Origin: Candidatus Doudnabacteria bacterium
GTDB lineage: Bacteria > Patescibacteriota > Doudnabacteria > UBA920
Assembly: GCA_016218585.1 (NCBI GenBank)
Contig: JACRDK010000010.1
Location: forward strand, 4,974 to 68,973
DNA length: 64,000 nt
Direction: 5' to 3'
The stretch's first letter is position 1. The number at the start of each line of letters is the position of its first letter. The notes beneath the pieces were generated by a model. It was not told where the DNA came from, did not search any database, and saw only the letters and a list, made by a program, of their open reading frames with translations. Below are positions 8,797 through 57,528 of the stretch, piece by piece. The position numbers and the translations under genes are program-made.

Positions 8797-8845
8797 AAAA
8801 TCTTTACTAAATACTAATTATTACTAATATACTAATAAACAAAAC
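8797..8845 (-). promoter_or_regulatory. Recurrent upstream motif (TAGTATATTAGTA..AATTAGTATTTAGTAAAG + about 7 nt + ATG) preceding rplT; promoter giving a very short leader
   Basis: Near-identical motif also precedes the PLD-like gene (44167-44215) and rsmA (57480-57528); no Shine-Dalgarno between motif and ATG. Confidence 0.4.
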
Positions 8846-8908
8846 TGAAAAATAATTTTTATCAATACGAATTGGTATATTGGTACAAATTCGTATTTGG
8901 TAAAAGTT

Positions 8909-9103
8909 TTATTTGTAAGGGATTACTTGTTTTAACTTCTGGTGAACTCTTCCCAAGGAAAGGTCGCGGCGTTTGTTGGTGCCGGTCTTGCCGGATTCGC
9001 GGGAGTTGTAATGGTCCTGCCCGGTGGCTCTGGCCATTAATTTTCCGGATTTGGTCTTTCTAATTCTCTTGGAAGTTCCTTTGTGAGTTTTGACTTTAGG
9101 CAT
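8909..9103 (-). CDS. rpmI: 50S ribosomal protein L35
   Basis: MPKVKTHKGTSKRIRKTKSGK... typical L35. Confidence 0.9.
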   Translation of the reverse strand: MPKVKTHKGTSKRIRKTKSGKLMARATGQDHYNSRESGKTGTNKRRDLSLGRVHQKLKQVIPYK

Positions 9104-22779: not shown

Positions 22780-22787
22780 TGAAGAGC

Positions 22788-22822
22788 AAAAAGCCCCCGC
22801 AAGTTGCGGGGGCTTTTTGTAA
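22788..22822 (+). terminator. Intrinsic terminator of micro-ORF
   Basis: gcccccgcaagttgcgggggc hairpin plus TTTTT. Confidence 0.75.
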
Positions 22823-22886
22823 TTAATGCAACCTTTTTAAAAGTTTGTGGTTATACTATTATATAGAGAATAATAGTTTTCAGTTT

Positions 22887-23522
22887 ATGGATTTAGCCCA
22901 AGAACGGGAATTGGTGGAAAAATCAAGAAAAGATCCGGAAAGCTTTGGCAGGCTTTTTGATATTTACTATGGCAAAATTTTTGCCTATATTTTTAAGCGC
23001 ACCGGGCACACGCAGGCCAGCCAGGATATAACCTCGGAAGTATTTTTAAAAGCCTATAACAAACTATGGCAATTTCGCTGGATGAATTTAAGTTTTGGCT
23101 CGTGGCTTTATAAAATTGCGGGCAATGAAGTGAATAACTATTTTAAAAAAGGAAAAACAGCTCCCATTCCGGCGGAGTTTATAGAGGAACTGGAACACCT
23201 GGGAGTTTGCGCTCCCAGCGCGGAGCTGGAATTTTTAGGGCTAGAACAGCAGCAGGCATCCTTACAGGATTTGCATTTATTGCACCGGGAAATTTTAAAC
23301 CTGCCGCCAAAATACCAGGAAGTTATGGCTTTGCGCTATTTTGAAGATTATAGCTTAAAAGAAATTTGCAAAATTTTGGGGAAAAAAGAAGGAACCGTAA
23401 AATCCCTGCTGTCGCGCGGGGTGGATATGCTGGAAAAGAAATTGCAACCTAATTCTACGAATGAAGTTATATCTACGAAGACGATAATTAAAAGTACCAG
23501 CTATGAACAAACAGGAAATTGA
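22887..23522 (+). CDS. RNA polymerase ECF-type sigma-70 factor
   Basis: Region 2 (FGRLFDIYYGKIFAYIFKRTGHTQASQDITSEVFLKAY) and region 4 HTH (YQEVMALRYFEDYSLKEICKILGKKEGTVKSLLSRG); likely start at MDLAQ. Confidence 0.85.
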   Translation: MDLAQERELVEKSRKDPESFGRLFDIYYGKIFAYIFKRTGHTQASQDITSEVFLKAYNKLWQFRWMNLSFGSWLYKIAGNEVNNYFKKGKTAPIPAEFIEELEHLGVCAPSAELEFLGLEQQQASLQDLHLLHREILNLPPKYQEVMALRYFEDYSLKEICKILGKKEGTVKSLLSRGVDMLEKKLQPNSTNEVISTKTIIKSTSYEQTGN

Positions 23523-24369
23523 AAAAAGCTTAGGGGTTATGTCCCAGTGGCAACCCTTAGTCCCAACCGGACATAAACACCAGCTCAAACTGGCGCTGCT
23601 TCAATACGGATTAAAAAACCGTCCTGGCGTTTGGGCTTGGTTAAAGAAAGCGGGAAAACATATGCAACAGAATTTTAAAATAGCTTCATTTGTCGCCGGA
23701 ACTATGGTCGGCGTGTTAATGTTTAGCGGCGTGCAATACGCCAACAATTCGCCGGAGCTGGCAAAGTATAACCCGTTTGCCACGCCAACGGCGCAGGCCA
23801 AAGCCGAAGTGCGCAATGTAATGCACCGGGTGAGCTTGTTGTCGGAAGACCAGCGCGTGGAATTGGAAAAGAAATTTAAGTTAGATATGACTCAGTCTTT
23901 AAAGGAAGCTTATGAAGCAAAAGATTTGGTAATTTCCGACGCCTCCCAGTTTCAGCCGGTTGAAGGTATGCCAAATACCATTGCTTTAACGCAAAGTTCT
24001 AATGCCGGGTTTGTTACTACTTCTTCCGGAAATGCTTCCACAGCGCCTCTTAGCGTTAGCGGAGCAATGGGTTTTGCGGTTTCCAATGTGGGAACAGGGG
24101 AAGGGGCAGAAAATTCTTCCGTATCTTTGAATGCCGGAACTGTGACCGCGGTTGGCGGGATGAAGAAATTGTCTAAGCGCCTTACCTATACAGACCCTCA
24201 AGGAAATAAAACCGTACTGATGCTGGACGAAGACGGATTGCCGGTAATGAAAATGACAATGCTTTCCGATGAAGAATCTTTAAAACTGAAACAGCAAGCG
24301 GACAGGGGAGAAGTGCTAACCCTCCCGGCCACTGGAGCAACCTTTCATACGGAAGTTGAAGAAAAGTAA
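23503..24369 (+). CDS. Putative anti-sigma factor (cytoplasmic N-terminus, single TM, extracytoplasmic domain)
   Basis: Overlaps the sigma gene by 20 nt; topology typical of ECF anti-sigma factors. Confidence 0.5.
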   Translation: MNKQEIEKSLGVMSQWQPLVPTGHKHQLKLALLQYGLKNRPGVWAWLKKAGKHMQQNFKIASFVAGTMVGVLMFSGVQYANNSPELAKYNPFATPTAQAKAEVRNVMHRVSLLSEDQRVELEKKFKLDMTQSLKEAYEAKDLVISDASQFQPVEGMPNTIALTQSSNAGFVTTSSGNASTAPLSVSGAMGFAVSNVGTGEGAENSSVSLNAGTVTAVGGMKKLSKRLTYTDPQGNKTVLMLDEDGLPVMKMTMLSDEESLKLKQQADRGEVLTLPATGATFHTEVEEK

Positions 24370-24428
24370 AAAAGATAAAGTATAACTAAAAAAAACAGCA
24401 CAGGTCTAGAGCCTGTGCTGTTTTTTTG
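24334..24428. repeat. Direct repeat copy 1 (3' end of anti-sigma gene + bidirectional terminator)
   Basis: About 90% identical to 25263-25358. Confidence 0.85.
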
Positions 24429-24488
24429 ACTTGTAAATTAACCTTTAAATGTAGTATTATTAGCCCAGCCTGCGAAGGAGGCAGAATA

Positions 24489-25193
24489 GTGGAACGTTAC
24501 AAAATAAATACCGTATCGCGAGAAACCGAGCTGCAAATAGCTCAATGGGCAAAAGCGGGTTATGAACACCCGCTCACCGAGCAGTACAAGCATGGTCCGC
24601 ATTTAAATAAACTCCACAATGGCCGGTACTCGGCGAACATTGTCGGGTTTATACTCGTAGGGAAGTTCGGCGAGCCTGGCACGGCCCACGAGCGGCTTCG
24701 GAAAGTTCAGGGCCGGTATTGGGAACTGCTTGGGCTAACCGAAGACCAGTGTGCGCCCCTCGAAGATCTCGCTGCATTTCAAGACTGCAACGACATCGGC
24801 ACTGAAACCATCATCCACGATCTTTTCAACGTGTTACATCTGGAGGCGCACGTTTGCGGGGAAAACGAGTGGAGCCTCACCGGCGATTTCTTGGCTTCGG
24901 GGGCTGTTGTCATTCTGCCCGTTTCTGAACAGGCCAAAGAATGGCTCAAACTCGCTCTGGAACCTCGCAACTTCGAATTGCGGAACGTGCGCGTCAACAA
25001 TCTGTTAACAGGCATGGATGACTGCGTCGAAATGCGCGTATGCACCAACGGCGCCGGGGACTTGGCGGTCTTCGTCGACTATCAAGGTGTCAAACAGGAC
25101 GCCCTCGACCTGCGCCTCTGGTGGCTGACGAGGATGCTCAACCATTTCATGTCCAAGCGCATTGCCGCAATCAAACGTCGCGATGTGGCGTAA
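24489..25193 (+). CDS. Hypothetical protein, GC-rich single-gene insertion
   Basis: GTG start 7 nt after AAGGAGG; markedly higher GC than flanks; no recognisable family; bracketed by about 95-bp direct repeats. Confidence 0.5.
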   Translation: MERYKINTVSRETELQIAQWAKAGYEHPLTEQYKHGPHLNKLHNGRYSANIVGFILVGKFGEPGTAHERLRKVQGRYWELLGLTEDQCAPLEDLAAFQDCNDIGTETIIHDLFNVLHLEAHVCGENEWSLTGDFLASGAVVILPVSEQAKEWLKLALEPRNFELRNVRVNNLLTGMDDCVEMRVCTNGAGDLAVFVDYQGVKQDALDLRLWWLTRMLNHFMSKRIAAIKRRDVA

Positions 25194-25262
25194 CTTCCAA
25201 CATCAACCAAAAAAGCGGCCTGCGCGAAGTCTAAACTTCCGCCGGCCGCTTTGTCTATTACC

Positions 25263-25358
25263 GGAGCAATTTTTCATACAGAAGTTGAAGAAAAATAAAA
25301 AAAGATAAAGTATAACTAAATAAAAAAACAGCGCAGGTCTAGAACCTGTGCTGTTTTT
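25263..25358. repeat. Direct repeat copy 2 (pseudo 3' end of anti-sigma gene + terminator)
   Basis: ggagcaa(tt)tttcatac(a)gaagttgaagaaaa(a)taaaaaagataaagtataactaaa...acagcGcaggtctagaAcctgtgctgtttttt. Confidence 0.85.
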
Positions 25359-26070
25359 TATACTTTGGTAATACTAACTCGCCGTTATACCCATAGGAGT
25401 GCAGTATTGCTTGCCATGCCATTTGAAGTAGTTCTTGAACAGGCACATCGGACTTAATATGCAAAGGATCTTCTTTTGATCCCAATCCCTCTAACCAGCC
25501 CCACTCTAGACCTCTTGTTTCTATTCCTGCATCGTGGATAAAGCCAGACCTGACGCGAATCCATAAATGATCTATGACATCCGAAAATTTTAAAATACTT
25601 TTATTATACTTGAATAGTTCCTCGACTTTGTATCTTTTTGCAATGTCAACCTTTGTTGATTCTGGCAGATTTTCTTCAAGAAATTGAGTTATTTTCTTTT
25701 GTTTCTTATTCCAGAAACCAGCCTTTCCTTTTGCGGTAATTTCCAGCATACCGAACATTATAACAATCATAAATTGAGACCACGTAATTTCCGAATAAAA
25801 TTTATAAAGACCATTTTCTGATTCTGTATTTAAAAGAGTCTTAAGTGGCAGAGCATGTATCTCAAAATAGTTTATTGCATTTACTAGCAACTTCTTTTTA
25901 TCGTCAGCTAACTTTTACAGAGTAGGAAGAAATTCTTCTGATAGTTCGTACCCAATTTGTATGTACTTTTGCTGTTCTTGCCCCCAAGAGTGAACGCGTC
26001 CAAAATATCCTGATTCTGGGCTTAGTACTTCAATTAACTTTCGGTTGATTTTTTCGTTTTGTTCACTCAT
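25339..26070 (-). pseudogene. 243-codon ORF interrupted by one in-frame TAA (25915-25917); hypothetical protein, AT-rich
   Basis: The 51-aa N-terminal ORF (ATG 26070) and the 183-aa ORF (25890-25339) are in the same frame, separated only by TAA; ATG overlaps the upstream gene's TGA as ATGA. Confidence 0.5.
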
Positions 26071-26831
26071 AGAGCTAGATTATTCTGAGTTTTTATCTGG
26101 TGATATTCTTCAATGTTTTTACAAAGCTTGATTCCTAGATCTGTTAAACGATCAGCAGAACGTATTCCGCTCCTGTCACTATAAGTTCTATCGCTGATGA
26201 GCTTTTGGTCGATTAACATAACTTCATCATTTTCAACTAATCCTGCTGAGTTATGACCCGCTAGTCTCGCTATCGTACTTAGCCATCCACTAGCTTCTCC
26301 TGTCATAGCAAGAGTAGAATCTTCCTTCTTATAAACTTTATAAGCCGCCCTTAATGTCAAAAGTTGTGAAGATGTTAATTTTTTTGTTATTTGGAATACC
26401 TGATAATTAAGTATTTCTTCCCCGTCTTTTTCTTTGATAACTGCAAAAAACATCGCTTTTATTGCATCAAATCTGTCTTCATCAGGAGCTTCATTATCTA
26501 TAAAATTTAGCAACTCCGCAAAACTATCAACTGCATATTTTTTGTCCCCATAGTTCGGCTTAATTTTGCCTTTATCTAACAAGAATTGCAATTCTTGGCC
26601 TAGCTGCTGTTTCATCTTGCCAACCAAAGCACCTTGTAAAATTCTACCTCCTGCCAAAATTATTTCCTCTTTTCCCATAGCTAAACCCGCACTTATAATA
26701 GCAGCAATTTTTGTCTTCGGTTGATCCAAGAGTATTTCTAAATCTTTTGGATTACGGTAAGATAAAAGTTCCCCTTGAATCGCAGAGGGTTTAAATGAAT
26801 CCAACTTTTTTACTTTATTATCTTCGTTCAT
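26067..26831 (-). CDS. Hypothetical protein (AT-rich block)
   Basis: Complete ORF; translationally coupled to the downstream ORF (ATGA); no recognisable family. Confidence 0.55.
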   Translation of the reverse strand: MNEDNKVKKLDSFKPSAIQGELLSYRNPKDLEILLDQPKTKIAAIISAGLAMGKEEIILAGGRILQGALVGKMKQQLGQELQFLLDKGKIKPNYGDKKYAVDSFAELLNFIDNEAPDEDRFDAIKAMFFAVIKEKDGEEILNYQVFQITKKLTSSQLLTLRAAYKVYKKEDSTLAMTGEASGWLSTIARLAGHNSAGLVENDEVMLIDQKLISDRTYSDRSGIRSADRLTDLGIKLCKNIEEYHQIKTQNNLAL

Positions 26832-26896
26832 AATATTTTATGTGCAAATTTCATTAAATTTCAAAGTCGCAAGCTATGTAGCATATTTTTGTTAAT

Positions 26897-28024
26897 TTAT
26901 TTACCATAATTATTTAGGACAATTTTATATAGAGTTGATGTTGTCCTAGATTTTGTAAAAGTGCTTTCGTAGAGGGTTTCTCCATTATCAAGTATGTATG
27001 GGTTGTCTAAATAATATTCAGCAATAAAACCAAACATATTATGAGGAATTTCTCTATAACCTAATGCCTCAGCTAAACTTATTTTATCATTTACAATATA
27101 TGGGTTGCCATGATTCCATGAATTATCAAACAGCCAGTTTCCGTTATCGTATTGAAGGACCGTAATTGCCCATTTATGGTCACACCAATGGCATTCAAAA
27201 TCATCTTTTAAATTTATCTGAGGATGCCCTAAAATAAGACGATATGTATCATCCTCCCCTAATTTTGCCCATTTAATAAAGGTATCAGTATCGATAATAT
27301 TTATGGAGATTTTTTTGTCATTATTAATTAAATCTATGGGTTTGGTAAATTCTTCATCTGCAGGTTTTAAAACCAAACATGTCCTCGCGACGCATTCTTT
27401 ATTATATGATAAATTTGGGAGAAATACTTCTTTATAGTTTCCATTAATGTTGTCAATAACAAAATTTATAAGATTCGTTCCACTACCGCAAACATTCCCA
27501 AGCATAGTAAAAATTATTTGTTTTTTCCCCTCATTATTTAAGTCTAAAACCTGACTCTTGTATATCCATAAATCTGTATTATCATCTTTGAACTGCGGTC
27601 TAAATTCATATTTTTTATTATACGGAATAGAAAAGGCGGAAAATAGCAAATTTTGGTTTTTTCTTTCGTATATTTGAATTATTGGCGGTTTTAATGATGG
27701 TGATTTATTAGAACATTGAAGTTTAAAATTTTTATCATTTGCAATTACTAATAAAGAACCGTCTCCATAACCAGCTAAATCAACTTGTTGAATTTGGACA
27801 TCATAATCAGTACCGATTTTGTATTTAATAAATTGTGCAATCCTTTCATTGCTATAATTACTCGGTAATTTACCATAAATAAATACAGAAATAATTATTA
27901 TAAAAATATAGCTAAATAGTAGTTTTACGACATCCTTTCCTTGATCTTTTAAAATTGATAGAATAGATTTTTTTATACCTGGAAAGAAATCTTTAATTTT
28001 ATTAGTGTATTCTTTATATGACAT
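26897..28024 (-). CDS. Hypothetical N-terminally membrane-anchored protein (AT-rich block)
   Basis: TM helix near N-terminus (LLFSYIFIIIISVFIY); Cys/His cluster HWCDHKW; preceded by repeat A copy 1. Confidence 0.55.
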   Translation of the reverse strand: MSYKEYTNKIKDFFPGIKKSILSILKDQGKDVVKLLFSYIFIIIISVFIYGKLPSNYSNERIAQFIKYKIGTDYDVQIQQVDLAGYGDGSLLVIANDKNFKLQCSNKSPSLKPPIIQIYERKNQNLLFSAFSIPYNKKYEFRPQFKDDNTDLWIYKSQVLDLNNEGKKQIIFTMLGNVCGSGTNLINFVIDNINGNYKEVFLPNLSYNKECVARTCLVLKPADEEFTKPIDLINNDKKISINIIDTDTFIKWAKLGEDDTYRLILGHPQINLKDDFECHWCDHKWAITVLQYDNGNWLFDNSWNHGNPYIVNDKISLAEALGYREIPHNMFGFIAEYYLDNPYILDNGETLYESTFTKSRTTSTLYKIVLNNYGK

Positions 28025-28077
28025 AGCTTCGTTGTTGAAAAAAGCTCAGAATTATCCCGTCTCATTATAGACATTAT

Positions 28078-28135
28078 AAGTATGCTACTGTAATTTCCCT
28101 CTGTCAATTTGCTTAATTTGTCCGGGAAAGGGGAG
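28078..28135 (-). promoter_or_regulatory. Repeat A copy 1 (promoter-like: ...GGACAAATTAAGCAAATTGACAGAGGGAAATTACAGTAGCATACTTATAAT on minus strand)
   Basis: Contains TTGACA and TATAAT-like hexamers; located upstream of the 26897-28024 gene. Confidence 0.5.
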
Positions 28136-28139
28136 ATAA

Positions 28140-28169
28140 AAACAAAACACCGCTATAGGCGGTGCTAAG
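28140..28169 (-). terminator. Intrinsic terminator of 28170-28616 gene
   Basis: caccgc..gcggtg hairpin plus TTTTGTTTTT on minus strand. Confidence 0.6.
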
Positions 28170-28616
28170 TTAATTTTCGATGATTTGAATTTGGTTCTCG
28201 GAAAACAAGGGTTTGAGTCTGTTGTAGATTTCTAAATTTACCCCCAAAATTATAACATACAACTTGTTTTTTAAATTTATTTCAATACTTCTATAAGTTC
28301 CGTCGGGTCTGGAAAGAATGGTTCTTTTAATAACGACATTTTTAATGTCAGAATATTTGATTAATATAGGGGTTTGTGAAAATGGTGAAAAGTTTGTGTT
28401 TTTTAAAACAAAGCCATCTTTTTGTAATTTTATTGAATCTTTTGCGCCACCCCTGCCTATAGGGAAGAAATAAATTTTTGCGAAAATTGAACGTACGGGT
28501 ATTTCCTCGCCCTCTATTTTTTCCCAACCGGATACTAATTTATAATAATTGTAGTTTGTAATGCAAAAAAATGTCAAAATTCCTAAAGCAATAATTATAA
28601 ATAGATAATTAATCAT
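28170..28616 (-). CDS. Hypothetical membrane protein with bacterial PH-like C-terminal region
   Basis: Probable start at MINYLF (28616); the track's N-terminal extension is repeat A read as codons; two TM helices. Confidence 0.5.
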   Translation of the reverse strand: MINYLFIIIALGILTFFCITNYNYYKLVSGWEKIEGEEIPVRSIFAKIYFFPIGRGGAKDSIKLQKDGFVLKNTNFSPFSQTPILIKYSDIKNVVIKRTILSRPDGTYRSIEINLKNKLYVIILGVNLEIYNRLKPLFSENQIQIIEN

Positions 28617-28646
28617 TGAATTAAAATAGTTTAAATCACTTAAGTT

Positions 28647-28710
28647 AAGTATGCTACTGTAATTTCCCTCTGTCAATTTGCTTAATTTGTCCGGGAAAGG
28701 GGAGGGGAAA
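28647..28710 (-). promoter_or_regulatory. Repeat A copy 2
   Basis: 61/62 identical to copy 1; directly upstream of the 28170-28616 gene. Confidence 0.5.
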
Positions 28711-28784
28711 ATAGGAGAACCGCAAGCGGGGGCGCTTGCGGTTTCGTTGCTATTGTTGGTCGATGGCCGTTTGCCCCCAGGCCG
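28707..28784. repeat. Repeat B copy 1 (structured element: aaccgcaagc/gcttgcggtt hairpin + ggcc..ggcc hairpin)
   Basis: About 95% identical to 30765-30840; lies 3' of the 28798-29348 gene. Confidence 0.7.
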
Positions 28785-28797
28785 TTGGCGTCGGAAT

Positions 28798-29348
28798 TTA
28801 CTTGGGTTGGAAGAGCGTTATTTGGCTGAAGCACCCAACACCCTGAGTGCGGTCTTGGTCTCTTTCCTGATCTTTGGATAGCAGGGTTTGAGAGCCCAAG
28901 CAGGAGCCGCGAGGATGCCCAAACATCAGTCGGTAGAGCATCTCTTGAATATTGGCGACGCTGGTTGAAGAAATGGAAGCGTTGCACCAATAAGTCTTTC
29001 CCATTGTCGGTTCTCCCTCTTTCAGAGTGTTGCGATCATTCCCACAGGTGTCGATCAGCATGTATGTTGTCATGTCAGCGCTCCGATAGGATCCGAATGG
29101 TAAGTGCGAATCCCAGTGGTAATACACGCTGACAAGGTATATTTTCCCCTTGAAGGTCACTCGCTCGATGACCTCTTGGGGAATTTTCGGTATTTCCTCG
29201 GTGGGGTCAGTCAAGCTCACGCTGAGTTTGACATACTTTTTGCCTGTTGCTTGGTGCTCTTCGATTTGGAGATTCGCAAGAGTCCCAGCTTCCACGAGAC
29301 GATCAATTTCAGCCTCGCCGCCTTTTTTCAACCATATCCGGACTGACA
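28798..29348 (-). CDS. Hypothetical protein (GC-rich island)
   Basis: Best start MSVRIW at 29348 with GAAGGAGG RBS; the track's TTG start is the TTGACA of repeat A copy 3. Confidence 0.5.
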
Positions 29349-29446
29349 TAATACCTCCTTCACCGCTAAGGGGTTCTTGTGGCGAGTACAATTTCGCCAT
29401 CTGCCTATTAGACGGTTGCGGAGTATTTGTAGCAAATAAGCATAAT

Positions 29447-29488
29447 ATTGTCAATTTGCTTAATTTGTCCGGGAAAGGGGAGGGGAAA
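29447..29488 (-). promoter_or_regulatory. Repeat A copy 3 (5' half only, retains TTGACA)
   Basis: gtcaatttgcttaatttgtccgggaaaggggaggggaaa identical to copies 1 and 2. Confidence 0.5.
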
Positions 29489-29504
29489 TTGCTATTTTAA
29501 ATTT

Positions 29505-29541
29505 TGTTGACATCTTTCACATTTGTGAACTATATCAACAA
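29505..29541. promoter_or_regulatory. Operator-like nested palindrome O2 (TTGTTGA..TCACATTTGTGA..TCAACAA)
   Basis: 7-bp outer inverted arms around a TCACA/TGTGA core; followed by conserved AAATTGYYATTTTAAA. Confidence 0.5.
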
Positions 29542-29582
29542 GTTAATTTTATTTAGAAAAGGAAAAATTGTCATTTTAAAAC

Positions 29583-29620
29583 TTGTCTAAAACTCTCACA
29601 TTTGTGAATATTTTAGACAA
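29583..29620. promoter_or_regulatory. Operator-like nested palindrome O1 (TTGTCTAAAAC..TCACATTTGTGA..GTTTTAGACAA)
   Basis: 10-bp perfect outer arms plus the same core; near-identical to 30697-30734. Confidence 0.55.
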
Positions 29621-29659
29621 ATTGGTTTTATTTTATTTAAGGAAAGGGGAGGGAATTGG

Positions 29660-29702
29660 AAAAGCGCCGGAGCCCGTATGGTGTACGGGGCGGCGCTTTT
29701 GC
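29660..29702. terminator. Bidirectional terminator (agcgccg..cggcgct) downstream of 29708-30484 gene
   Basis: GC stem flanked by A4 and T4 runs. Confidence 0.65.
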
Positions 29703-29707
29703 GGCGG

Positions 29708-30484
29708 TCAGTAGGTTAAAACGGCTTGCTTGATGTCAGAGATGTTGGTAGCGTGTGGTACGGTAATTCCATCCAAAGTTGTTTCGGTAAACACTTTGTG
29801 TGGCCCAACATGCTTGATCACGCCATTCACGGGCGCCCCATTCTTTAGGGTCAGCGTAACCATCATGCCTTCGTTCCCTGCGAGACCCTTCTGTGACGGG
29901 AAGTCGATAACCTTCACAGGAGCAAACTTCTCGGCCACAAAGCCCGGCGCATAGCGTATGACCACGCGGAACAGCTCTTGGTTATCCTTCAAGAGCGCGC
30001 CCAGGGCTTCGATTATGGTCGAGCCGAAGGCAAACGGCAACGGGGAATCTTCTTCCCCGCGCTGTGAGGGTCTGGCATCTGGATTGTCCAGAATCTGGGC
30101 TCTGATGATGTTGTCCGCGTTGCTCAATTCAATTGGCACTCGGCGAGTCTCGGTCATGCCCTCGTCGCTGTACTGGAAGAATTGCTCGGGTTCGTACGAG
30201 CAGACTTCGCCGCTTTCATCGCAGTTGCCAATTCTGACCGAGCCGTGGGACCATCCTCGAGAGGTCTTGAACATGAAGCACTCGGCTGTAATGTCCAAGA
30301 AGTCCTGGCGCTGGACGCGGATGGACAGATGCCGGAAATTTCCGAGCGTGCCATCGGGGTTTACGGGGTTGTCGTCGGGGTAAGGCTCAACTTCGTGTTT
30401 GAGCCAAATCAAGTCTGGTTGGTCTGCCATTTGCACCATCTTGAGCGCAAATTTCAGAGAAAAACCTTCCGAATCTTTAGACAT
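29708..30484 (-). CDS. Hypothetical protein (GC-rich island)
   Basis: 258-aa ORF; long structured 5' leader containing operator O3 and repeat B copy 2. Confidence 0.55.
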   Translation of the reverse strand: MSKDSEGFSLKFALKMVQMADQPDLIWLKHEVEPYPDDNPVNPDGTLGNFRHLSIRVQRQDFLDITAECFMFKTSRGWSHGSVRIGNCDESGEVCSYEPEQFFQYSDEGMTETRRVPIELSNADNIIRAQILDNPDARPSQRGEEDSPLPFAFGSTIIEALGALLKDNQELFRVVIRYAPGFVAEKFAPVKVIDFPSQKGLAGNEGMMVTLTLKNGAPVNGVIKHVGPHKVFTETTLDGITVPHATNISDIKQAVLTY

Positions 30485-30696
30485 AGTTGTTCTCCATCAT
30501 CCGGATGCCTGTTTTACCAGGTACTGCCATCTCCGGCAGCGAACTACGCGTAAAATACGCACAGATCGCTGCCGAAGAATAAACTCCTCCTTTACGACAT
30601 TAAAGTATATCAAAAGGCTTAGAAATGTCCAGGTTAATTTATAAAAAATATTTATCTATTCTAGAAAGGGTAATTAAAAAATTGCCATTTTAAATC

Positions 30697-30734
30697 TTGT
30701 CTAAAACTCTCACATTTGTGAATATTTTAGACAA
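30697..30734. promoter_or_regulatory. Operator-like nested palindrome O3
   Basis: 37/38 identical to O1. Confidence 0.55.
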
Positions 30735-30764
30735 GTTGATTTTATTTTATTTAAGGAAAGGGGG

Positions 30765-30840
30765 AAAATAGGAGAACCGCAAGCGGGGGTGCTTGCGGTT
30801 TCGTTGCTATTGTTGGTCAATGGCCGTTTGCCCCCAGGCC
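30765..30840. repeat. Repeat B copy 2
   Basis: See copy 1. Confidence 0.7.
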
Positions 30841-30868
30841 ACTAGCGAGAATCAGGGTTCGTCGCGCT

Positions 30869-31159
30869 CTACTTGAATAGGAGCTCTTTGAATTCGCTGA
30901 AGGTGCACAGGGAATGCGGAATCAGGATCACGCAACCCGATTCGGGATCGTACGTCCCAGCGAAAGTGAATGCGGCTTCTTTGAGCCACTCGCTGTTCCG
31001 TAGGATTGCCCGCCGCAGAGCGCGAGCGGAGTGGATGTAGCACTCGTTGAAATGTTCGTGTTTAACCCATCTCGGCCTTCGGTTCCTGCCTCCTCGGCTC
31101 AAAGCGGTCACTCCTTCCGGAGTTTCCCCTTTAATGATGATATAACCAGAAAGGTACAT
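30869..31159 (-). CDS. Hypothetical small protein
   Basis: Likely ATG at 31159; GC-rich. Confidence 0.4.
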   Translation of the reverse strand: MYLSGYIIIKGETPEGVTALSRGGRNRRPRWVKHEHFNECYIHSARALRRAILRNSEWLKEAAFTFAGTYDPESGCVILIPHSLCTFSEFKELLFK

Positions 31160-31373
31160 CAATTCTTCATCCTTTGTAGATGTATTCTGCTCTGCCCGGG
31201 TAATTTACCAGGGTAAGTCAGTTTAGCAATTCTATCATAAATTAGAATAAGTTCAAGTACTGAATATTTTTTTAAACAAAATAAAAAACTCTAAAGTTGG
31301 GAGCAGAAATGATGCAGCGCGAGGAACTTTTGGTTCCCCGCGCTGTGTGCTGGTGGTTGTTGTTGGCCTGCAA

Positions 31374-31598
31374 TCAAACCGTCCTGGGTTCGGTTTGTGC
31401 GCCTTGGGAAGCGCAAGGGTTTTTTGCGGCGAGCCGCTTGGCCCTATCCTGGTCAATTAGCTCGTTAATCACATCGTACACAACCCTTTTGCTGAATGGG
31501 CATTCAGCGCCGTCAGCGGTGGTGTGGGTTTCAATGTGGTCTTCGAGCTCTGAAAATTGGATTCGGCTGTTGCAGCCCGGGCAAACTGAGATTATCAT
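31374..31598 (-). CDS. Small Cys/His protein (putative zinc ribbon)
   Basis: CPGC...H..H...C; ATG overlaps upstream gene stop (ATGA). Confidence 0.4.
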   Translation of the reverse strand: MIISVCPGCNSRIQFSELEDHIETHTTADGAECPFSKRVVYDVINELIDQDRAKRLAAKNPCASQGAQTEPRTV

Positions 31599-31888
31599 GC
31601 CTTTCCTTTCGAACGCCGAAATCTTCTTGGCTTCTTGAAAATGACTGGGCCGTCGGCGGCCTTGAAGCTGAGAGCTGGACGCCCGGGTTTGGGCACTTCC
31701 TGGACTCCGGGGACCCTGGTGGCCTGCTTTTGCTTCTTGCCCACGAAGTACAGAATGCCTCCTTGCCAGGCGAGTTTCCGGCCCGGATACTCGCGCATTG
31801 CCAGTTCTTTCAAGCGCTTTCTCATCTTCAGGTAAGGCGCCCGTCCGCCAGGGTTTTCTTCGCCATGAGTCGTGCGGGGGTTAGCCAT
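31595..31888 (-). CDS. Hypothetical basic small protein
   Basis: AAGGAGGAG RBS 5 nt before ATG; preceded by GC-hairpin module copy 1. Confidence 0.45.
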   Translation of the reverse strand: MANPRTTHGEENPGGRAPYLKMRKRLKELAMREYPGRKLAWQGGILYFVGKKQKQATRVPGVQEVPKPGRPALSFKAADGPVIFKKPRRFRRSKGKA

Positions 31889-31960
31889 ACAACTCCTCCT
31901 TGTTGAAGTATAATACTGTGAGGCATAGTAGCAAAAAGCAATAACAAAGTCCAGGTATGA

Positions 31961-32000
31961 ACAAGCGCCGGGTCCGCGGGGGTGCGGACTCGGCGCTTTG
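31961..32000. repeat. 40-nt GC hairpin repeat copy 1 (AACAAGCGCCGGGTCCGCGGGGGTGCGGACTCGGCGCTTT), terminator-like
   Basis: Near-identical copy at 33707-33745; both followed on minus strand by promoter-like ctggacttt..tata region and an RBS-bearing gene. Confidence 0.7.
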
Positions 32001-32020
32001 TGCTTGTTGACGTGAGTACG

Positions 32021-32539
32021 TTAACCGCTGGCCTTTTTCCAAATAAGGCTTAAGGCCAGAGCGGCTAAGCTGATCCAAAACCACCAGTTGTACAGCTTGG
32101 TGTGCGGATACGACTTGTGGTCCGGCGGCAGGATTAAAATGAATTTGTCTTTTCTCTTTATCATCAGCCTGTCCCTAATGAGAGAAATGAACAGCTGGTC
32201 GTCCGGCGGTTCATTCGACAAGTTGTATCTGATTGTCGCTTCCTGAATCTCCACCAGGTTGTTGAACCAGATTTGAAACGGAGGCGACGCCGGGTTAACC
32301 GCGAAATGAAGGTCGGTTTTCTTTAAGCCGTAACCTCTGAGGTGGGTGACGGCTGTGTCGATGTTTTTCTGGCAGTCCTTCATATTTTTGGCAAACACGG
32401 CTTGCCGCAAGGGCTGCTCTACCTTATTGGCGAAGTCGTAGCCGTGGTGCCACCTGAGAATCAGGCACAAAGCCAAAGCGGCGAAGGCCAGGGAAATCAT
32501 CGCTTCTTGCCACGGAAAGAATCTGTTATTCACGTTTTC
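32021..32539 (-). CDS. Single-pass membrane protein, paralog A (WFNNL motif)
   Basis: Best start GTG 32539 with AGGAGG RBS; TM ISLAFAALALCLIL; paralogous to 32563-33096. Confidence 0.5.
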   Translation of the reverse strand, partial: ENVNNRFFPWQEAMISLAFAALALCLILRWHHGYDFANKVEQPLRQAVFAKNMKDCQKNIDTAVTHLRGYGLKKTDLHFAVNPASPPFQIWFNNLVEIQEATIRYNLSNEPPDDQLFISLIRDRLMIKRKDKFILILPPDHKSYPHTKLYNWWFWISLAALALSLIWKKASG

Positions 32540-32562
32540 CTCCTGAATGCTGTGCGAGTGTC

Positions 32563-33096
32563 TTAATATCCGTTGTCGTCCTTTGCAACCCACCAGCCAA
32601 GACCGCCTACAAACATCATCGTGCTTACCAAAGCCCAACACAGGTAGAGGATGCCGTAGGGGTAGGTGGAGATGCCGGTAGGTGATTCAACCACCAGAAG
32701 TCCTCGCTCTTCCTTAAGAATTTTCTCGCGGACAGTTTCGAGCATTTCTTCGCCTGAGGGGAAGAAGCCCTCCTGTCCTTGCCTCTCTAGCGCTTCTTGA
32801 AGGTTGGCCAGGTTGTTAAACCACGCCTGCGTGTCGGAGATGTTTTGATTGCGCGGCGCATTGTTCGGAGTTTTCTGAAAACCCATCTCCTTCAGGTGCG
32901 AGATAGCTACGCTTAAGTGCTCAAGGCATTCCTTGGTGCTCTTGGAGTAAGCGGCACGACTCAAAGGTTCTTCGATGTTGCGGTTGAACGCTGTGAGGTT
33001 TGAAATAGACATCAGGACGCAGAACAGCATTAACAGCAATCCTATGCCCGCGATGTTCACGCTCAACGGTGTAGCTTCTTTGTTTTGCGTTTGCAT
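32563..33096 (-). CDS. Single-pass membrane protein, paralog B (WFNNL motif)
   Basis: Shared blocks: basic-Cys..H(L)xxxG..KT..AWFNNLANLQEA; N-terminal TM. Confidence 0.5.
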   Translation of the reverse strand: MQTQNKEATPLSVNIAGIGLLLMLFCVLMSISNLTAFNRNIEEPLSRAAYSKSTKECLEHLSVAISHLKEMGFQKTPNNAPRNQNISDTQAWFNNLANLQEALERQGQEGFFPSGEEMLETVREKILKEERGLLVVESPTGISTYPYGILYLCWALVSTMMFVGGLGWWVAKDDNGY

Positions 33097-33314
33097 TCAT
33101 ATCCTCCTGTATTTTCCACGAACAAATAAAAATACCACATTGCTGTGGTTGTGTCAATTGTGATTATAATTTACTGAGAAGTAAAATAAAAATTTTAATA
33201 GCGCAGGAGCCCCCACTTCCTGCGCTATTTCTGCTGGCATTGTTGCCGTTAGTTCAAGTACGATGCGTTCGGTTCGACGTTGTTGGTTATTCAGCCGACT
33301 CTCTTGCCGCCCTG

Positions 33315-33635
33315 CTACCGCTCGGTCACGAACTTCTTTTCGCAGTTGGGGCAATCGTTGGGCCCAAGCTTCACGTTGTTGATGAACCGTTTGCAATAAG
33401 GGCAGTCGGAGCTGCCATACATTGCACCTGTGTAGTAAGGGTACCACTGGGTCTTTTTGGCGCTTGGTTTCTTGTCCAAGGAGCGCAGGTATTCCCACCG
33501 GTTTTGCCGAGCCGCTTGAACTGCTTTTTTGGAAATAACCTCGCCATTCCAATTGCAGCGGAACCGGTTGCGGGCAAGGGGGGTAAACGTAATGCGTTTG
33601 TCCAGCTGGACTGTGCCTTGATTCGATATCGGCAT
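33315..33635 (-). CDS. Small zinc-ribbon protein (CPYC...CPNC)
   Basis: AAGGAGG RBS; preceded by GC-hairpin module copy 2. Confidence 0.45.
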   Translation of the reverse strand: MPISNQGTVQLDKRITFTPLARNRFRCNWNGEVISKKAVQAARQNRWEYLRSLDKKPSAKKTQWYPYYTGAMYGSSDCPYCKRFINNVKLGPNDCPNCEKKFVTER

Positions 33636-33706
33636 CGAGTCCTCCTTGCAGCAAACTATACCAAACTGTTCAAAAAAAGTCCAGATTTATAAAAAAGTAA
33701 AAATTA

Positions 33707-33745
33707 ACAAGCGCCGGGTCCGCGGGGTGCGGACTCGGCGCTTTT
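33707..33745. repeat. 40-nt GC hairpin repeat copy 2
   Basis: See copy 1. Confidence 0.7.
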
Positions 33746-33857
33746 ATATAGCTTGCCTGATTTCCGTTCAGGCGGACGGCTGGGTTACAATTGTGCTCAA
33801 TAAAAAAACAAATGAGTACGGTAAAATTAGAAGTCAGTTACTTTGGTGGTGTGACGG

Positions 33858-34058
33858 TTAGTTTTTTTCTTCTAGTTTTTTTCTCATTCCCTCCAAATGG
33901 TTTTGAAAGTCAATGCCAACAAAGTGCGCCTTAGCAACGCATTCCGCACAGTGGGACAGGTGGCTTACGGCTTGCGCATCGTCATCGGTTAATGGCCCCC
34001 CAGAACCAGCAAACAGGCGAGCAAGCTGCTCGTCTGACACGTGATCGTCTTTATCCAT
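33858..34058 (-). CDS. Small protein with anti-sigma-like zinc-finger motif (HxxxCxxC)
   Basis: AGGAGG RBS; SHLSHCAECVAKAH. Confidence 0.4.
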   Translation of the reverse strand: MDKDDHVSDEQLARLFAGSGGPLTDDDAQAVSHLSHCAECVAKAHFVGIDFQNHLEGMRKKLEEKN

Positions 34059-34238
34059 ACAGCCTCCTCTTGTTAAGAAAGACTATATTATATAGAAGAC
34101 AAGGTCAAGAAAAAAATAGCGAAAAGTAAAAACTCCCGCATGAAAATGAACAATAAAAATAAAGCCCTGTTATTTAAAGAAATGAAGATGCCGCCGACAG
34201 CCTTAATGGCATTGTCGGCGGCGGTTTGGAAGAGACAG

Positions 34239-34427
34239 TTAGTCCTTAGTGGGGGGAACTTTTTTCCCTGTTCCTCCGCACGAAGGGCACTTGGTAACTT
34301 CGGTGCTCCAGAGGCATGAGCATTCCATTAACCCTTGCGAGTCTTTGCCGTCCCCGCGGCAAAGTGGACACACGCCAATTCCTGTTCCACCACAATCGGG
34401 GCACAGTTCGTCAGTTTCGATAATCAT
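34239..34427 (-). CDS. 62-aa protein composed of DnaJ-type CXXCXGXG zinc-finger repeats
   Basis: CPDCGGTG, CPLCRGDG, CPSCGGTG; GGAGG RBS. Confidence 0.5.
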   Translation of the reverse strand: MIIETDELCPDCGGTGIGVCPLCRGDGKDSQGLMECSCLWSTEVTKCPSCGGTGKKVPPTKD

Positions 34428-34441
34428 AATTCCTCCATTGT

Positions 34442-34726
34442 TTACGGTCCGGCTACGGGCACGTCACATTTGCCCTCATAGGCAATGTTCATAACCGGTT
34501 CTCCTGCCCACTTTGTCCTTTCCAGCCAAAGAATTTTGGCCGACGGACAGGAATCATGGAAAACCTTGGCGGCCTCCGCAGCGCTCGCGGCATCAACAAA
34601 GACGCTGCTTGGTTTTGTGGCGGTGCTTCCTGCCCAAATGCGTGACGCTGCGACCTTCTTGTTTTTTGGCGGAGCCGTAAAGCCCACGCTTAAACAAATT
34701 AAAAACAACACTAGCAGCCTCCTCAT
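34442..34726 (-). CDS. Small secreted protein
   Basis: Signal peptide MRRLLVLFLICLSVGFTAPP; AGGAGG RBS; first gene of a 3-gene operon. Confidence 0.5.
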   Translation of the reverse strand: MRRLLVLFLICLSVGFTAPPKNKKVAASRIWAGSTATKPSSVFVDAASAAEAAKVFHDSCPSAKILWLERTKWAGEPVMNIAYEGKCDVPVAGP

Positions 34727-34819
34727 GGCTACCTCCTTTTTATTTCAATGCAATTATATCATTTTGGCTTTGAGTGTGGAAAGTTTAAAAAAGCGGAAAA
34801 ATTTGCATATAAATATTTA

Positions 34820-34848
34820 AAACCACCGCGTACTGCGGTGGTTTTAAA
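34820..34848 (-). terminator. Intrinsic terminator (accaccgcg..cgcggtggt)
   Basis: Hairpin plus T-run after the 34849-35253 gene. Confidence 0.6.
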
Positions 34849-35253
34849 TTATTGTACTTTAGGTTTATTCTTTTTTTGTTTTTTAGCAAATTCATCGCTC
34901 AGTCTATCTATGGATTCCTCGGAGCTTCCTTGTTCCATTAAAAACTTTTTCATAATTTTTTTGTCTCTGTCGGTTACTTCAATAGCTGGCTCCGGGTTTC
35001 TTGCATATATTTTTTCAGCAGCAGCAATTGCCTCGTCAGGGTTTATTTTTCCCTCTTTGTCCCATTTTTTGCAGAACAACCTAAACTCATCCATATTTTC
35101 AACCTCAACAAAAGCCGCAGCCGCGCCGTCAGCATCAAAAAGGTCAGTCTGTTTTAATAGTCCAAGTAAAATATTAACCATGGCTTCGTTATAGGCACGG
35201 GTTCCTCTAACTCTTTCCCAGTTTATGTAATTTGTATTTTCTTTTTCAGACAT
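34849..35253 (-). CDS. Hypothetical protein (AT-rich), between island and ssrA
   Basis: 134-aa ORF; no recognisable family. Confidence 0.5.
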   Translation of the reverse strand: MSEKENTNYINWERVRGTRAYNEAMVNILLGLLKQTDLFDADGAAAAFVEVENMDEFRLFCKKWDKEGKINPDEAIAAAEKIYARNPEPAIEVTDRDKKIMKKFLMEQGSSEESIDRLSDEFAKKQKKNKPKVQ

Positions 35254-35431: not shown

Positions 35432-35821
35432 TGGTGGAGATGCCGGGAGTTAAACCCGGGTCCAAAACTAATTCACTTTCCAATTGTTCACAAGATTAGC
35501 TAAGTTTAATACCTCTATAACAATAACTTAGCAAATAGTTATAAAGGGCGATTTACGTGTCTTAAGCTTGCGGGTGCAAATCAAATCCGCAAACAGCAGT
35601 CCAAAATGAACCCGGCGATCTTAGGTTTGGACAAACTTAAGGCCGGGATCTCAGCTTAATAAATTAAGCTAAGACTGGTTGTAAGTCGGCGTTTTGAAAC
35701 GCGGCTACAACTTTATTCCATGCGTTAGCATTTGTTTGTGTCCGAGGGATTTACGAGTCTTCAGACTGGCTCGTCTTGCATATTAGAAAATGTCAAAGTC
35801 CTGTCAAAATCCGTCATCCCC
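35432..35821 (-). ncRNA. ssrA: Transfer-messenger RNA (tmRNA, SsrA)
   Basis: Minus strand 5' GGGGAUGACGGAUUUUGACAGG (compare GGGGACGUUACGGAUUCGACAGG). 7-bp acceptor stem pairing with 3' CAUCUCC-ACCA including the G3:U70 wobble. T-arm CCGGG-UUUAACU-CCCGG. Internal tag-like ORF ...DLQPVLA-TAA. -35/-10 promoter just upstream. smpB is present 9 kb away. Confidence 0.8.
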
Positions 35822-44166: not shown

Positions 44167-44265
44167 ATTTATCTGGCTTTACTAAATACTAATTTTTACT
44201 AATATACTAATGTCGGTTTGTTAGAATTAGTATATTAGTACCGATTGGTAGTTAGTAAATACAGC

Positions 44266-44697
44266 TTAAGTGTAGCTCTTGATTTCTTTCTGGGCGTCTC
44301 TTTTCTTTATGTATTCTCTTTTGTCGGTTTTTTTTCTTGCTTTGCCTAAAGCAATTCTCATTTTTACCAAGCCGCGTGGTCCCAAGAATATTTCCAGCGG
44401 AATAATAACCAAACCTTTTTCTTTTCCTAAAAGTTGGTTAATTTCTTCTTTTTTTAGCAAAAGCTTTCTGGTTTGCGTCGGATCATATTTTTCATTTGGC
44501 GCATATTTGTAAGGACCAATATGACAGTTAATTAAATTGGCGCCGTTTGCCGAAACTGTAACATAAGCGCCGGTTAAGGAAACATTGCCTTGTTTAACGG
44601 ATTTAACTTCCGCTCCGGTCAATACCAAACCCGCCACGAAATTTTCTTTAAGATCGTAGTCGAATCTGGCTTTGCGATTTTCGGCGAATGTTGGCAT
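44266..44697 (-). CDS. smpB: SsrA-binding protein
   Basis: ENRKARFDYDLKENFVAGLVLTGAEVKSVKQG...LLLKKEEINQL typical SmpB. Confidence 0.9.
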   Translation of the reverse strand: MPTFAENRKARFDYDLKENFVAGLVLTGAEVKSVKQGNVSLTGAYVTVSANGANLINCHIGPYKYAPNEKYDPTQTRKLLLKKEEINQLLGKEKGLVIIPLEIFLGPRGLVKMRIALGKARKKTDKREYIKKRDAQKEIKSYT

Positions 44698-57479: not shown

Positions 57480-57528
57480 AATTGGTATATTAGTATAAAT
57501 TCGTATTTAGTAAATACAGAAAGATTTT
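57480..57528 (+). promoter_or_regulatory. Recurrent upstream motif preceding rsmA (TTGGTATATTAGTATAAATTCGTATTTAGTAAATACAG + 10 nt + ATG)
   Basis: Same family as 8797-8845 and 44167-44215. Confidence 0.4.

Follow-up and report, generated by a model that had tools for sequence, protein, structure and literature searches.

Repeat A and its predicted promoters

The window analysed here is a 64,000-nt stretch of chromosomal DNA from a metagenome-assembled genome of Candidatus Doudnabacteria, a lineage of the candidate phyla radiation (CPR; Patescibacteria), and forms part of a 191,920-nt contig (JACRDK010000010.1). Surrounded by housekeeping genes (those for IF-3, ArgRS, IleRS, RecO, SmpB, UvrD and KsgA, together with the gene for transfer-messenger RNA [tmRNA]) lies an island of about 11 kb. 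It extends from the 3' end of an anti-sigma-like gene (stop 24369), located downstream of an extracytoplasmic function (ECF) sigma factor gene (22887-23522), to the 3' end of the tmRNA gene (35432-35821), and consists mostly of single-gene units without homologues. The island genes (25339-35253) fall into two classes which stand side by side, an AT-rich class (28 to 36% GC) without a Shine-Dalgarno sequence and a GC-rich class (48 to 58% GC) with a strong GGAGG Shine-Dalgarno sequence; the mean for the whole window is 43%. These two classes suggest that the island genes were drawn from at least two donor lineages. In the part of the island with locus tags HY918_01915 to HY918_01930, an intergenic sequence termed Repeat A is found upstream of three minus-strand genes encoding proteins of 375 aa (HY918_01915, 26897-28024), 148 aa (28170-28616) and 183 aa (28798-29349). 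The first two genes are AT-rich (28% and 29% GC) and the third has 50% GC, so that the repeat links genes of both kinds, as the original prediction from the sequence had claimed.

The three near-identical copies were found where they had been predicted, to within one base, and the three-copy observation is confirmed; the start of the 183-aa gene, given earlier as 29348, was off by one and corresponds to an ATG at 29349. Copy 1 (28077-28142) comprises a junction box, an A/T-rich upstream segment, a -35 hexamer, a spacer and a -10 hexamer and is situated 52 nt upstream of the ATG at 28024, while copy 2 (28646-28711) is situated 29 nt upstream of the ATG at 28616. The two were identical at 59 of 59 nt (28077-28135 and 28646-28704) and 95% identical over 66 nt (28077-28142 and 28646-28711). 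Copy 3 (29447-29489), which is 97 nt upstream of the ATG at 29349, contains the upstream half only, from the junction box through TTGACA, and its positions 29449-29488 matched 28671-28710 of copy 2 at 40 of 40 nt. A 35-mer allowed up to three mismatches gave exactly three sites in the window and none in 100 shuffles, and nhmmer profiles revealed no further copies in the 64 kb. All three copies are co-oriented on the minus strand, the same strand as the gene downstream of each.

Read on the minus strand, Repeat A is CCCC(T)CCCCTTTCC - CGGACAAATTAAGCAAA - TTGACA - GAGGGAAATTACAGTAG - CATACT - TA. The -35 hexamer TTGACA is exact in all three copies, and the spacer (17 nt in each, against the 16 to 18 nt of sigma-70 promoters), the -10, the orientation and the short distance to the gene start all agree with promoters of this type. 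Promoters were thus predicted for the 375-aa gene (28079-28107, TTGACA-17-CATACT, predicted start near 28072), the 148-aa gene (28648-28676, TTGACA-17-CATACT, predicted start near 28641) and the 183-aa gene (29426-29454, TTGACA-17-(TGc)TACAAA, predicted start near 29418), all on the minus strand. In a consensus scan the copy 1 and copy 2 promoters matched 10 of 12 consensus positions. A -10 of this type has A at position 2 and T at position 6; the copy 3 hexamer lacks the final T and has the TG of an extended -10. The TTGACA that had been noted as a -35 in the repeat was upheld, and the TATAAT noted in copy 1 is real, but it is separated from TTGACA by 23 nt and is not part of the shared block, and the properly spaced -10 is CATACT. 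The tmRNA gene of the same genome is preceded by TTGTCA-17-TATGCT, indicating that housekeeping promoters of this host look canonical.

The boundaries of the repeat also fit a promoter. Copies 1 and 2 are identical from the junction box onwards, with an abrupt end to the identity 2 nt beyond the -10 hexamer, and the shared block begins directly after the terminator of the preceding gene, which is a unique terminator of the 148-aa gene in the case of copy 1 (28146-28166, minus strand) and a hairpin at 28718-28743, within an element termed D3, in the case of copy 2. Since the identity ends just past the -10, the shared part covers about -72 to -5 of the promoter and none of it would be transcribed, which argues against a role as leader, small RNA or coding sequence. 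Repeat A folded no better than shuffled sequence (z of +0.4 to +0.6), which argues against an attC-like or RNA element. Its reading frame is inconsistent across the copies. A coding N-terminal leader was ruled out, as nothing but the residues MT would be shared, no open frame runs through copy 1, and the homologues of the 183-aa protein begin MSVRIWL. The long open reading frame (ORF) versions at 28170-28676 and 28798-29454 begin at the TTG of the repeat's own TTGACA, and their N-terminal extensions are artefacts for that reason, in agreement with the earlier view that they are the repeat read as codons.

We therefore consider that Repeat A is probably a portable housekeeping (sigma-70-type) promoter module placed before three unrelated acquired genes, within a mosaic of such modules. 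Each copy would follow directly upon the terminator of the preceding gene and drive the transcription of the single-gene unit that comes next. Copies 1 and 2 would do so as complete promoters, whereas copy 3 would be an upstream half to which an imported gene has been joined together with its native promoter and leader. These promoters would be expected to fire. Several points weigh against this explanation. The -10 hexamer is imperfect (CATACT matches at 4 of 6 positions and TACAAA is without the final T), there are only three copies in the window, the complete identity of the copies may reflect recent duplication rather than selection, and two of the three downstream genes are without homologues, so that their promoters are not checkable by comparison. 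As it stands, Repeat A is a small, local and fairly ordinary feature. To our knowledge the promoters of CPR bacteria are almost uncharacterised, and the locus yields three testable predictions of housekeeping-type promoters, one of them backed by homologous loci.

The neighbouring ECF sigma factor had been put forward as the regulator of the repeat, which would make the three copies ECF promoters. What connects it with Repeat A is its proximity (about 4.5 kb), and the protein, in which regions 2 and 4 are both present, is a genuine group-4 sigma factor. The hexamers, however, fit the housekeeping consensus. ECF-dependent promoters have a -35 motif of the AAC type and a -10 motif of the CGT type, and no such motif is present in Repeat A. 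ECF sigma factors usually autoregulate, yet the upstream region of the sigma gene itself (22780-22890) shares nothing with the repeat. Three other genes and an inserted gene stand between the sigma gene and Repeat A, and the 183-aa gene keeps the same -10 at three other loci (L005, L009 and L010, all short contigs). ECF control is accordingly most improbable.

The upstream half, CGGACAAATTAAGCAAAT, includes the direct repeat CAAATT-N3-CAAATT and is the sole segment common to all three copies. It may act as a UP-like or insulating element. It could instead be the site of a dedicated transcription factor co-regulating the three genes, for which its presence in every copy would be an argument, as would its position, since class I activators and UP elements act in the interval that it occupies, about -36 to -66. 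This is unlikely, however, given that Pfam searches revealed no DNA-binding protein in the island, that the segment has no dyad symmetry, that no further sites occur in the window, and that the 100% identity leaves no variation to reveal selection on particular bases.

The predicted native promoter and the leader of the 183-aa gene

Copy 3 shares Repeat A from the junction box through TTGACA only, and the -10 and leader that follow are those of the 183-aa gene. Four metagenomic loci with homologues of this gene (L005/L006, L009, L010 and L011), encoding proteins 34 to 55% identical, were compared with the window, and the similarity was found to extend upstream of the ATG. Loci L005 and L009 have T[TG]GACA, a 17-nt spacer of variable sequence and a retained TGnTACAAA. 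In L010 the TG-extended -10 is kept as TATAAA, with TATACT at the -35 position, and L011 starts downstream of the promoter. All three loci that extend far enough thus keep the copy 3 -10, two of them also keep the -35 position, and none of the homologue loci has the portion of Repeat A that precedes TTGACA. The retention of these elements indicates that the copy 3 promoter partly passes a phylogenetic footprint and belongs to the 183-aa gene. The upstream half of Repeat A has been joined to this native promoter exactly at the shared -35 TTGACA.

These results, together with the hexamers and their spacing, the end of the identity after the -10 and the terminators upstream, support the original prediction of a promoter-like module before three genes. 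The co-regulation read into it was an over-interpretation, since copy 3 has Repeat A only as far as the -35 and beyond it relies on the -10 and leader of the gene itself. The earlier interpretation is therefore partly supported, as regards the promoter module and not as regards ECF-driven co-regulation.

Between the promoter and the gene lies a structured 5' leader of about 70 nt (29350-29419, minus strand), which is outside Repeat A and was kept in all four loci (L005, about 636-716; L009, about 225-304; L010, about 527-613; L011, 1-81) about as strongly as the coding sequence. It can be drawn as two nested helices with 18 pairs, in which 94% of the cells were paired and nine pairs showed compensatory changes; none of 500 shuffles reached this pairing, and slid controls were 28 to 56% paired. 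The loops GGCAGAU and ACAAGAACC are invariant, the 3' arm stops just before the Shine-Dalgarno sequence (GAAGGAGG), and the covarying helix starts at about the predicted transcription start. No Rfam family matched 29350-29419. The leader is a candidate for a new cis-regulatory RNA. Searches of viral contigs, by the leader RNA motif and by protein, yielded no member of the 183-aa family.

In locus L005 the 183-aa homologue is located between two small GIY-YIG nuclease genes (79 to 80 aa; 305-544 and 1490-1732) which form a 73%-identical direct repeat with a similar hairpin before each copy, so that the gene again lies between direct repeats.

Reused intergenic modules and possible cassette capture

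Four interleaved module families, namely Repeat A, the junction box, D1 and D3, make up the intergenic regions of the island. The junction box CCCCTTTCC (28125-28133, 28694-28702, 29472-29480, 29641-29649 and 30755-30763) is the first element of every Repeat A copy and of two D1 copies. This 9-mer occurs five times (0.72 expected), each time on the minus strand and at a junction of modules. The two G-rich fragments reported at 29641-29653 and 30755-30773 do exist. They had been taken for fragments of Repeat A, but they are the junction box heading D1 and not decayed copies of Repeat A, and it is the presence of such sequences in other families that makes the locus a mosaic of reused intergenic modules.

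D1 is an 87-nt unit. Two tandem units occupy 29484-29649 on the minus strand, one at 29563-29649 and the other, 66% identical, at 29484-29570, with an imperfect hairpin in each, and a third copy (30677-30763, minus strand), 95% identical to 29563-29649, is located upstream of the promoter of the 258-aa gene (HY918_01930, 29708-30484, minus strand), which thus has D1 copies on its flanks. The D1 hairpin has the outer arm TTGTCTAAAA/TTTTAGACAA and the inner arm TCACA/TGTGA. Owing to G-U pairs, its stability was greater when it was read on the sense (minus) strand (z of -5.5) than when it was read on the plus strand (z of -2.5). In the diverged unit at 29484-29570 the pairing is kept with a different outer arm, TTGTTGA/TCAACAA. 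D1 could be an RNA hairpin, an insulator or an operator. The D1 motif was absent from the viral contigs searched.

D3 (80 to 87 nt) consists of a 3' untranslated region and a terminator hairpin. One copy (28704-28790, minus strand; hairpin 28718-28743) follows the 183-aa gene and abuts Repeat A copy 2, and the other (30761-30847, minus strand; terminator 30775-30800) follows a 96-aa ORF and abuts the third D1 copy; the two are 97.5% identical over 80 nt and stand behind two unrelated genes. The intergenic region 28617-28797 is accounted for by a 29-nt 5' untranslated region, Repeat A, D3 and 8 nt. Copy 2 of Repeat A thus abuts the D3 terminator and copy 1 a unique terminator, while copy 3 abuts the D1 hairpins, where there is no strong terminator. 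A further terminator has been reused at 31960-31999 and 33706-33744, where a 40-nt GC-rich hairpin, 97.5% identical between the two sites, follows two different genes. Each copy is succeeded by a -35-like element, CTGGACTTT, and then by a different -10 and leader, which is the same pattern of sharing up to the -35 that was seen in Repeat A copy 3.

Such elements might be members of small intergenic repeat families dispersed over the whole genome (BOX-, Correia- or MITE-like), with Repeat A, D1 and D3 clustered here by chance. The modular make-up recalls pneumococcal BOX elements and the D1 hairpin is stable, but the copies occur only within 28.0 to 30.9 kb, with none in the other 61 kb or so of the window, and neither terminal inverted repeats nor target duplications were found. 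Exact Repeat A words (21- to 23-mers) were also absent from 185,579 GTDB species genomes and from IMG/VR. In JGI metagenomes, exact words gave one match (L001), confined to a core of about 23 nt and without other similarity to the window, which could be due to chance. We regard membership of such a dispersed repeat family as very unlikely.

Returning to the promoter-module explanation, we suggest recombination between short stretches of shared intergenic sequence as the most likely origin of the Repeat A copies, D1, D3 and the junction box, and as the means by which they spread. It would have taken place while foreign single-gene units of the two compositional classes accumulated between the anti-sigma-like gene and tmRNA, and recombination between the modules may shuffle the genes. 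A module mosaic around genes of two foreign compositions hints at how an episymbiont with a reduced genome imports ready-to-express units, and if recombination between modules does occur, the principle of phage promoter-early stem-loop (PeSL) cassettes and morons would extend to a bacterial chromosome.

PeSL cassettes are the closest described analogue. In the T4-type phages RB49 and phi1 they are repeated modules of a sigma-70 promoter and a stem-loop, which are found upstream of homologue-less genes in hyperplastic regions and are reported to recombine, thereby shuffling those genes (Arbiol et al. 2010; PMC2839356). Both they and the modules described here are repeated, intergenic and up to about 100 nt long, and have a sigma-70-like promoter preceded by A/T-rich sequence; a terminator stem-loop belongs to the PeSL module and here adjoins copies 1 and 2. 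Both lie immediately upstream of homologue-less genes in a hypervariable region, with which genes they are proposed to travel and which they are proposed to shuffle. The present locus, in contrast, is on a CPR chromosome without phage genes and not in a T4-type phage, has three copies rather than about 50, carries the terminator as a separate, interchangeable module (D3 or a unique hairpin) and has a C-rich junction box. Phage morons, independent promoter-gene-terminator units of atypical composition (PMC3594210), resemble the units described here in being single genes, each between a promoter and a terminator of its own, whose GC content departs from that of the surrounding DNA. Here there is no prophage context, and several units share identical promoter modules. 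The locus is thus not a member of these classes, though by analogy it plausibly works like PeSL cassettes and morons. No phage genes were detected around Repeat A when 10 island proteins were searched against PHROGs and the scanned ORFs of the window against Pfam.

A related alternative, which overlaps the promoter-module explanation and may be its main rival or its complement, is that the repeats are mainly recombination substrates or scars of cassette capture and that their likeness to promoters is secondary. The capture could have been site-specific (integron-like) or homology-driven, by way of PeSL-like mini-circles, Campbell-type insertion, or homology-facilitated illegitimate recombination after natural transformation. 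Sharp-bordered, co-oriented direct repeats flanking single genes of very different GC content are consistent with this, as are the presence of the 9-nt junction box at all five module junctions, the exact meeting of copy 3 and the native promoter at the shared TTGACA, and the reported behaviour of PeSL cassettes (PMC2839356). At the edge of the island, moreover, an 836-nt single-gene insertion (24427-25262) lies between direct repeats at 24334-24426 and 25263-25359. This edge repeat, of 97 nt and 90% identity, is the 3' end of the anti-sigma-like gene plus its terminator, and the insertion holds one GC-rich gene (54% GC, Shine-Dalgarno sequence GAAGGAGG, GTG start at 24489) with its own terminator. 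From its layout it looks like a Campbell-type insertion of a single gene without a recombinase. On the other side, Pfam revealed no integrase, transposase or other recombinase in a scan of ORFs that took in most of the 64 kb but not a 2361-aa ORF or several ORFs of 110 to 200 aa, and exact-word scans found no related array in species genomes, IMG/VR or JGI metagenomes.

The integron-like form of capture was compared with known arrays. Integron arrays likewise have co-oriented single-gene units of varied GC with related repeats between them, but no IntI was found among the ORFs scanned, and each gene here has its own promoter. An attC site is an imperfect palindrome with R'' (..AAC), L'', L' and R' (GTT..) boxes. 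An attC reading was ruled out, as Repeat A is unstructured and D1, although palindromic, has arms without the AAC and GTT cores. We consider it rather improbable that the repeats are mainly substrates or scars of capture.

A stronger proposal is that a platform for cassette capture, independent of a recombinase (or served by one acting in trans), is built beside tmRNA from the junction box, Repeat A, D1 and D3; we consider this quite doubtful. If true, phage PeSL shuffling would have a counterpart on a chromosome, in which foreign single genes are inserted and excised through short shared terminator and promoter modules and arrive wired for expression, and the platform would offer tiny-genome episymbionts one route by which to acquire and test homologue-less genes.

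Two further systems resemble the locus less closely. The rAID-1 arrays of Bacteroidales are recombinase-associated immunity gene arrays (Ross et al., bioRxiv 10.1101/471110) with co-directional genes, skewed GC and repetitive intergenic sequences, as here, but no XerD-like recombinase or immunity-family match was found among the proteins scanned and the phylum is different. In halovirus HF2, intergenic repeats were shown to be promoters (PMC8707807). They are of a comparable 29- to 58-nt class and lie before genes, but the virus is archaeal, as are its promoter elements, and the repeats are scattered across its genome.

Island genes and neighbouring features

Among the genes downstream of the repeat, the 375-aa gene is without a Shine-Dalgarno sequence and its product has an N-terminal membrane anchor. 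Its only match among 5.8 billion proteins was itself, which was also true of the 258-aa protein, and neither has homologues. The 148-aa protein has an N-terminal membrane segment and gave weak matches to bacterial PH domains (E values of 0.02 to 0.035), under the Pfam cut-off. The 183-aa protein belongs to a small homologue family and has a confident predicted fold (predicted local distance difference test score of 87), for which no match was found in the PDB. The 258-aa gene (53% GC) has a promoter of its own, TGGACA-16-TATACT (30631 to 30604). A Logan contig from run SRR12113407 (L002) corresponds to window positions 29591-30725 and holds the 258-aa unit at 100% identity, breaking at the two D1 copies. 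Because L002 was assembled independently from that run, it confirms the repeats as a real part of the data.

No island protein tested had a Pfam match above the curated cut-off, and PHROGs and PADLOC gave no matches for 10 island proteins. Weak Pfam matches were obtained for a 177-aa protein (VPS13_M, E value of 0.09) and a 106-aa protein (Zn_ribbon_6 and Thioredoxin_2, E values of about 0.06). Almost every island gene has a sigma-70-like site and a terminator of its own; one scan counted 38 promoter-like sites (consensus scan; 22.8 expected) and 29 terminator-like sites (14.5 expected).

The island reaches the tmRNA gene at its 3' end, a classic hot spot for integration, and smpB is at 44266-44697. 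The tmRNA 3' end is not duplicated in the window, and with no integrase found among the ORFs scanned there either, a classic tmRNA-targeting integrative island was ruled out. Rfam at gathering thresholds matched tmRNA alone in the window, and a sub-threshold ylbH match (23.8 versus 50 bits) was dismissed as being on the wrong strand. No close relative of the genome was found, in that a search for synteny through the neighbouring AEC transporter gave, among species genomes, only one 39%-identical Paceibacterota locus, which is without tmRNA, and metagenomes gave only the short chance-level match.

Two other repeats were observed in the window. Neighbouring genes at 32021-32548 and 32563-33096 encode paralogous membrane proteins with common motifs such as (Q/I)WFNNL..(L/I)QEA, and a DNA repeat (32237-32269 and 32791-32823) mirrors this paralogy. 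A separate dispersed intergenic element is present at three host loci (8802-8909, 44177-44264 and 57480-57519), one copy adjoining smpB, and consists of the inverted pair TTACTAATATACTAAT ... ATTRGTATATTRGTA followed by AAATTCGTATTTAGTAAATACAG.

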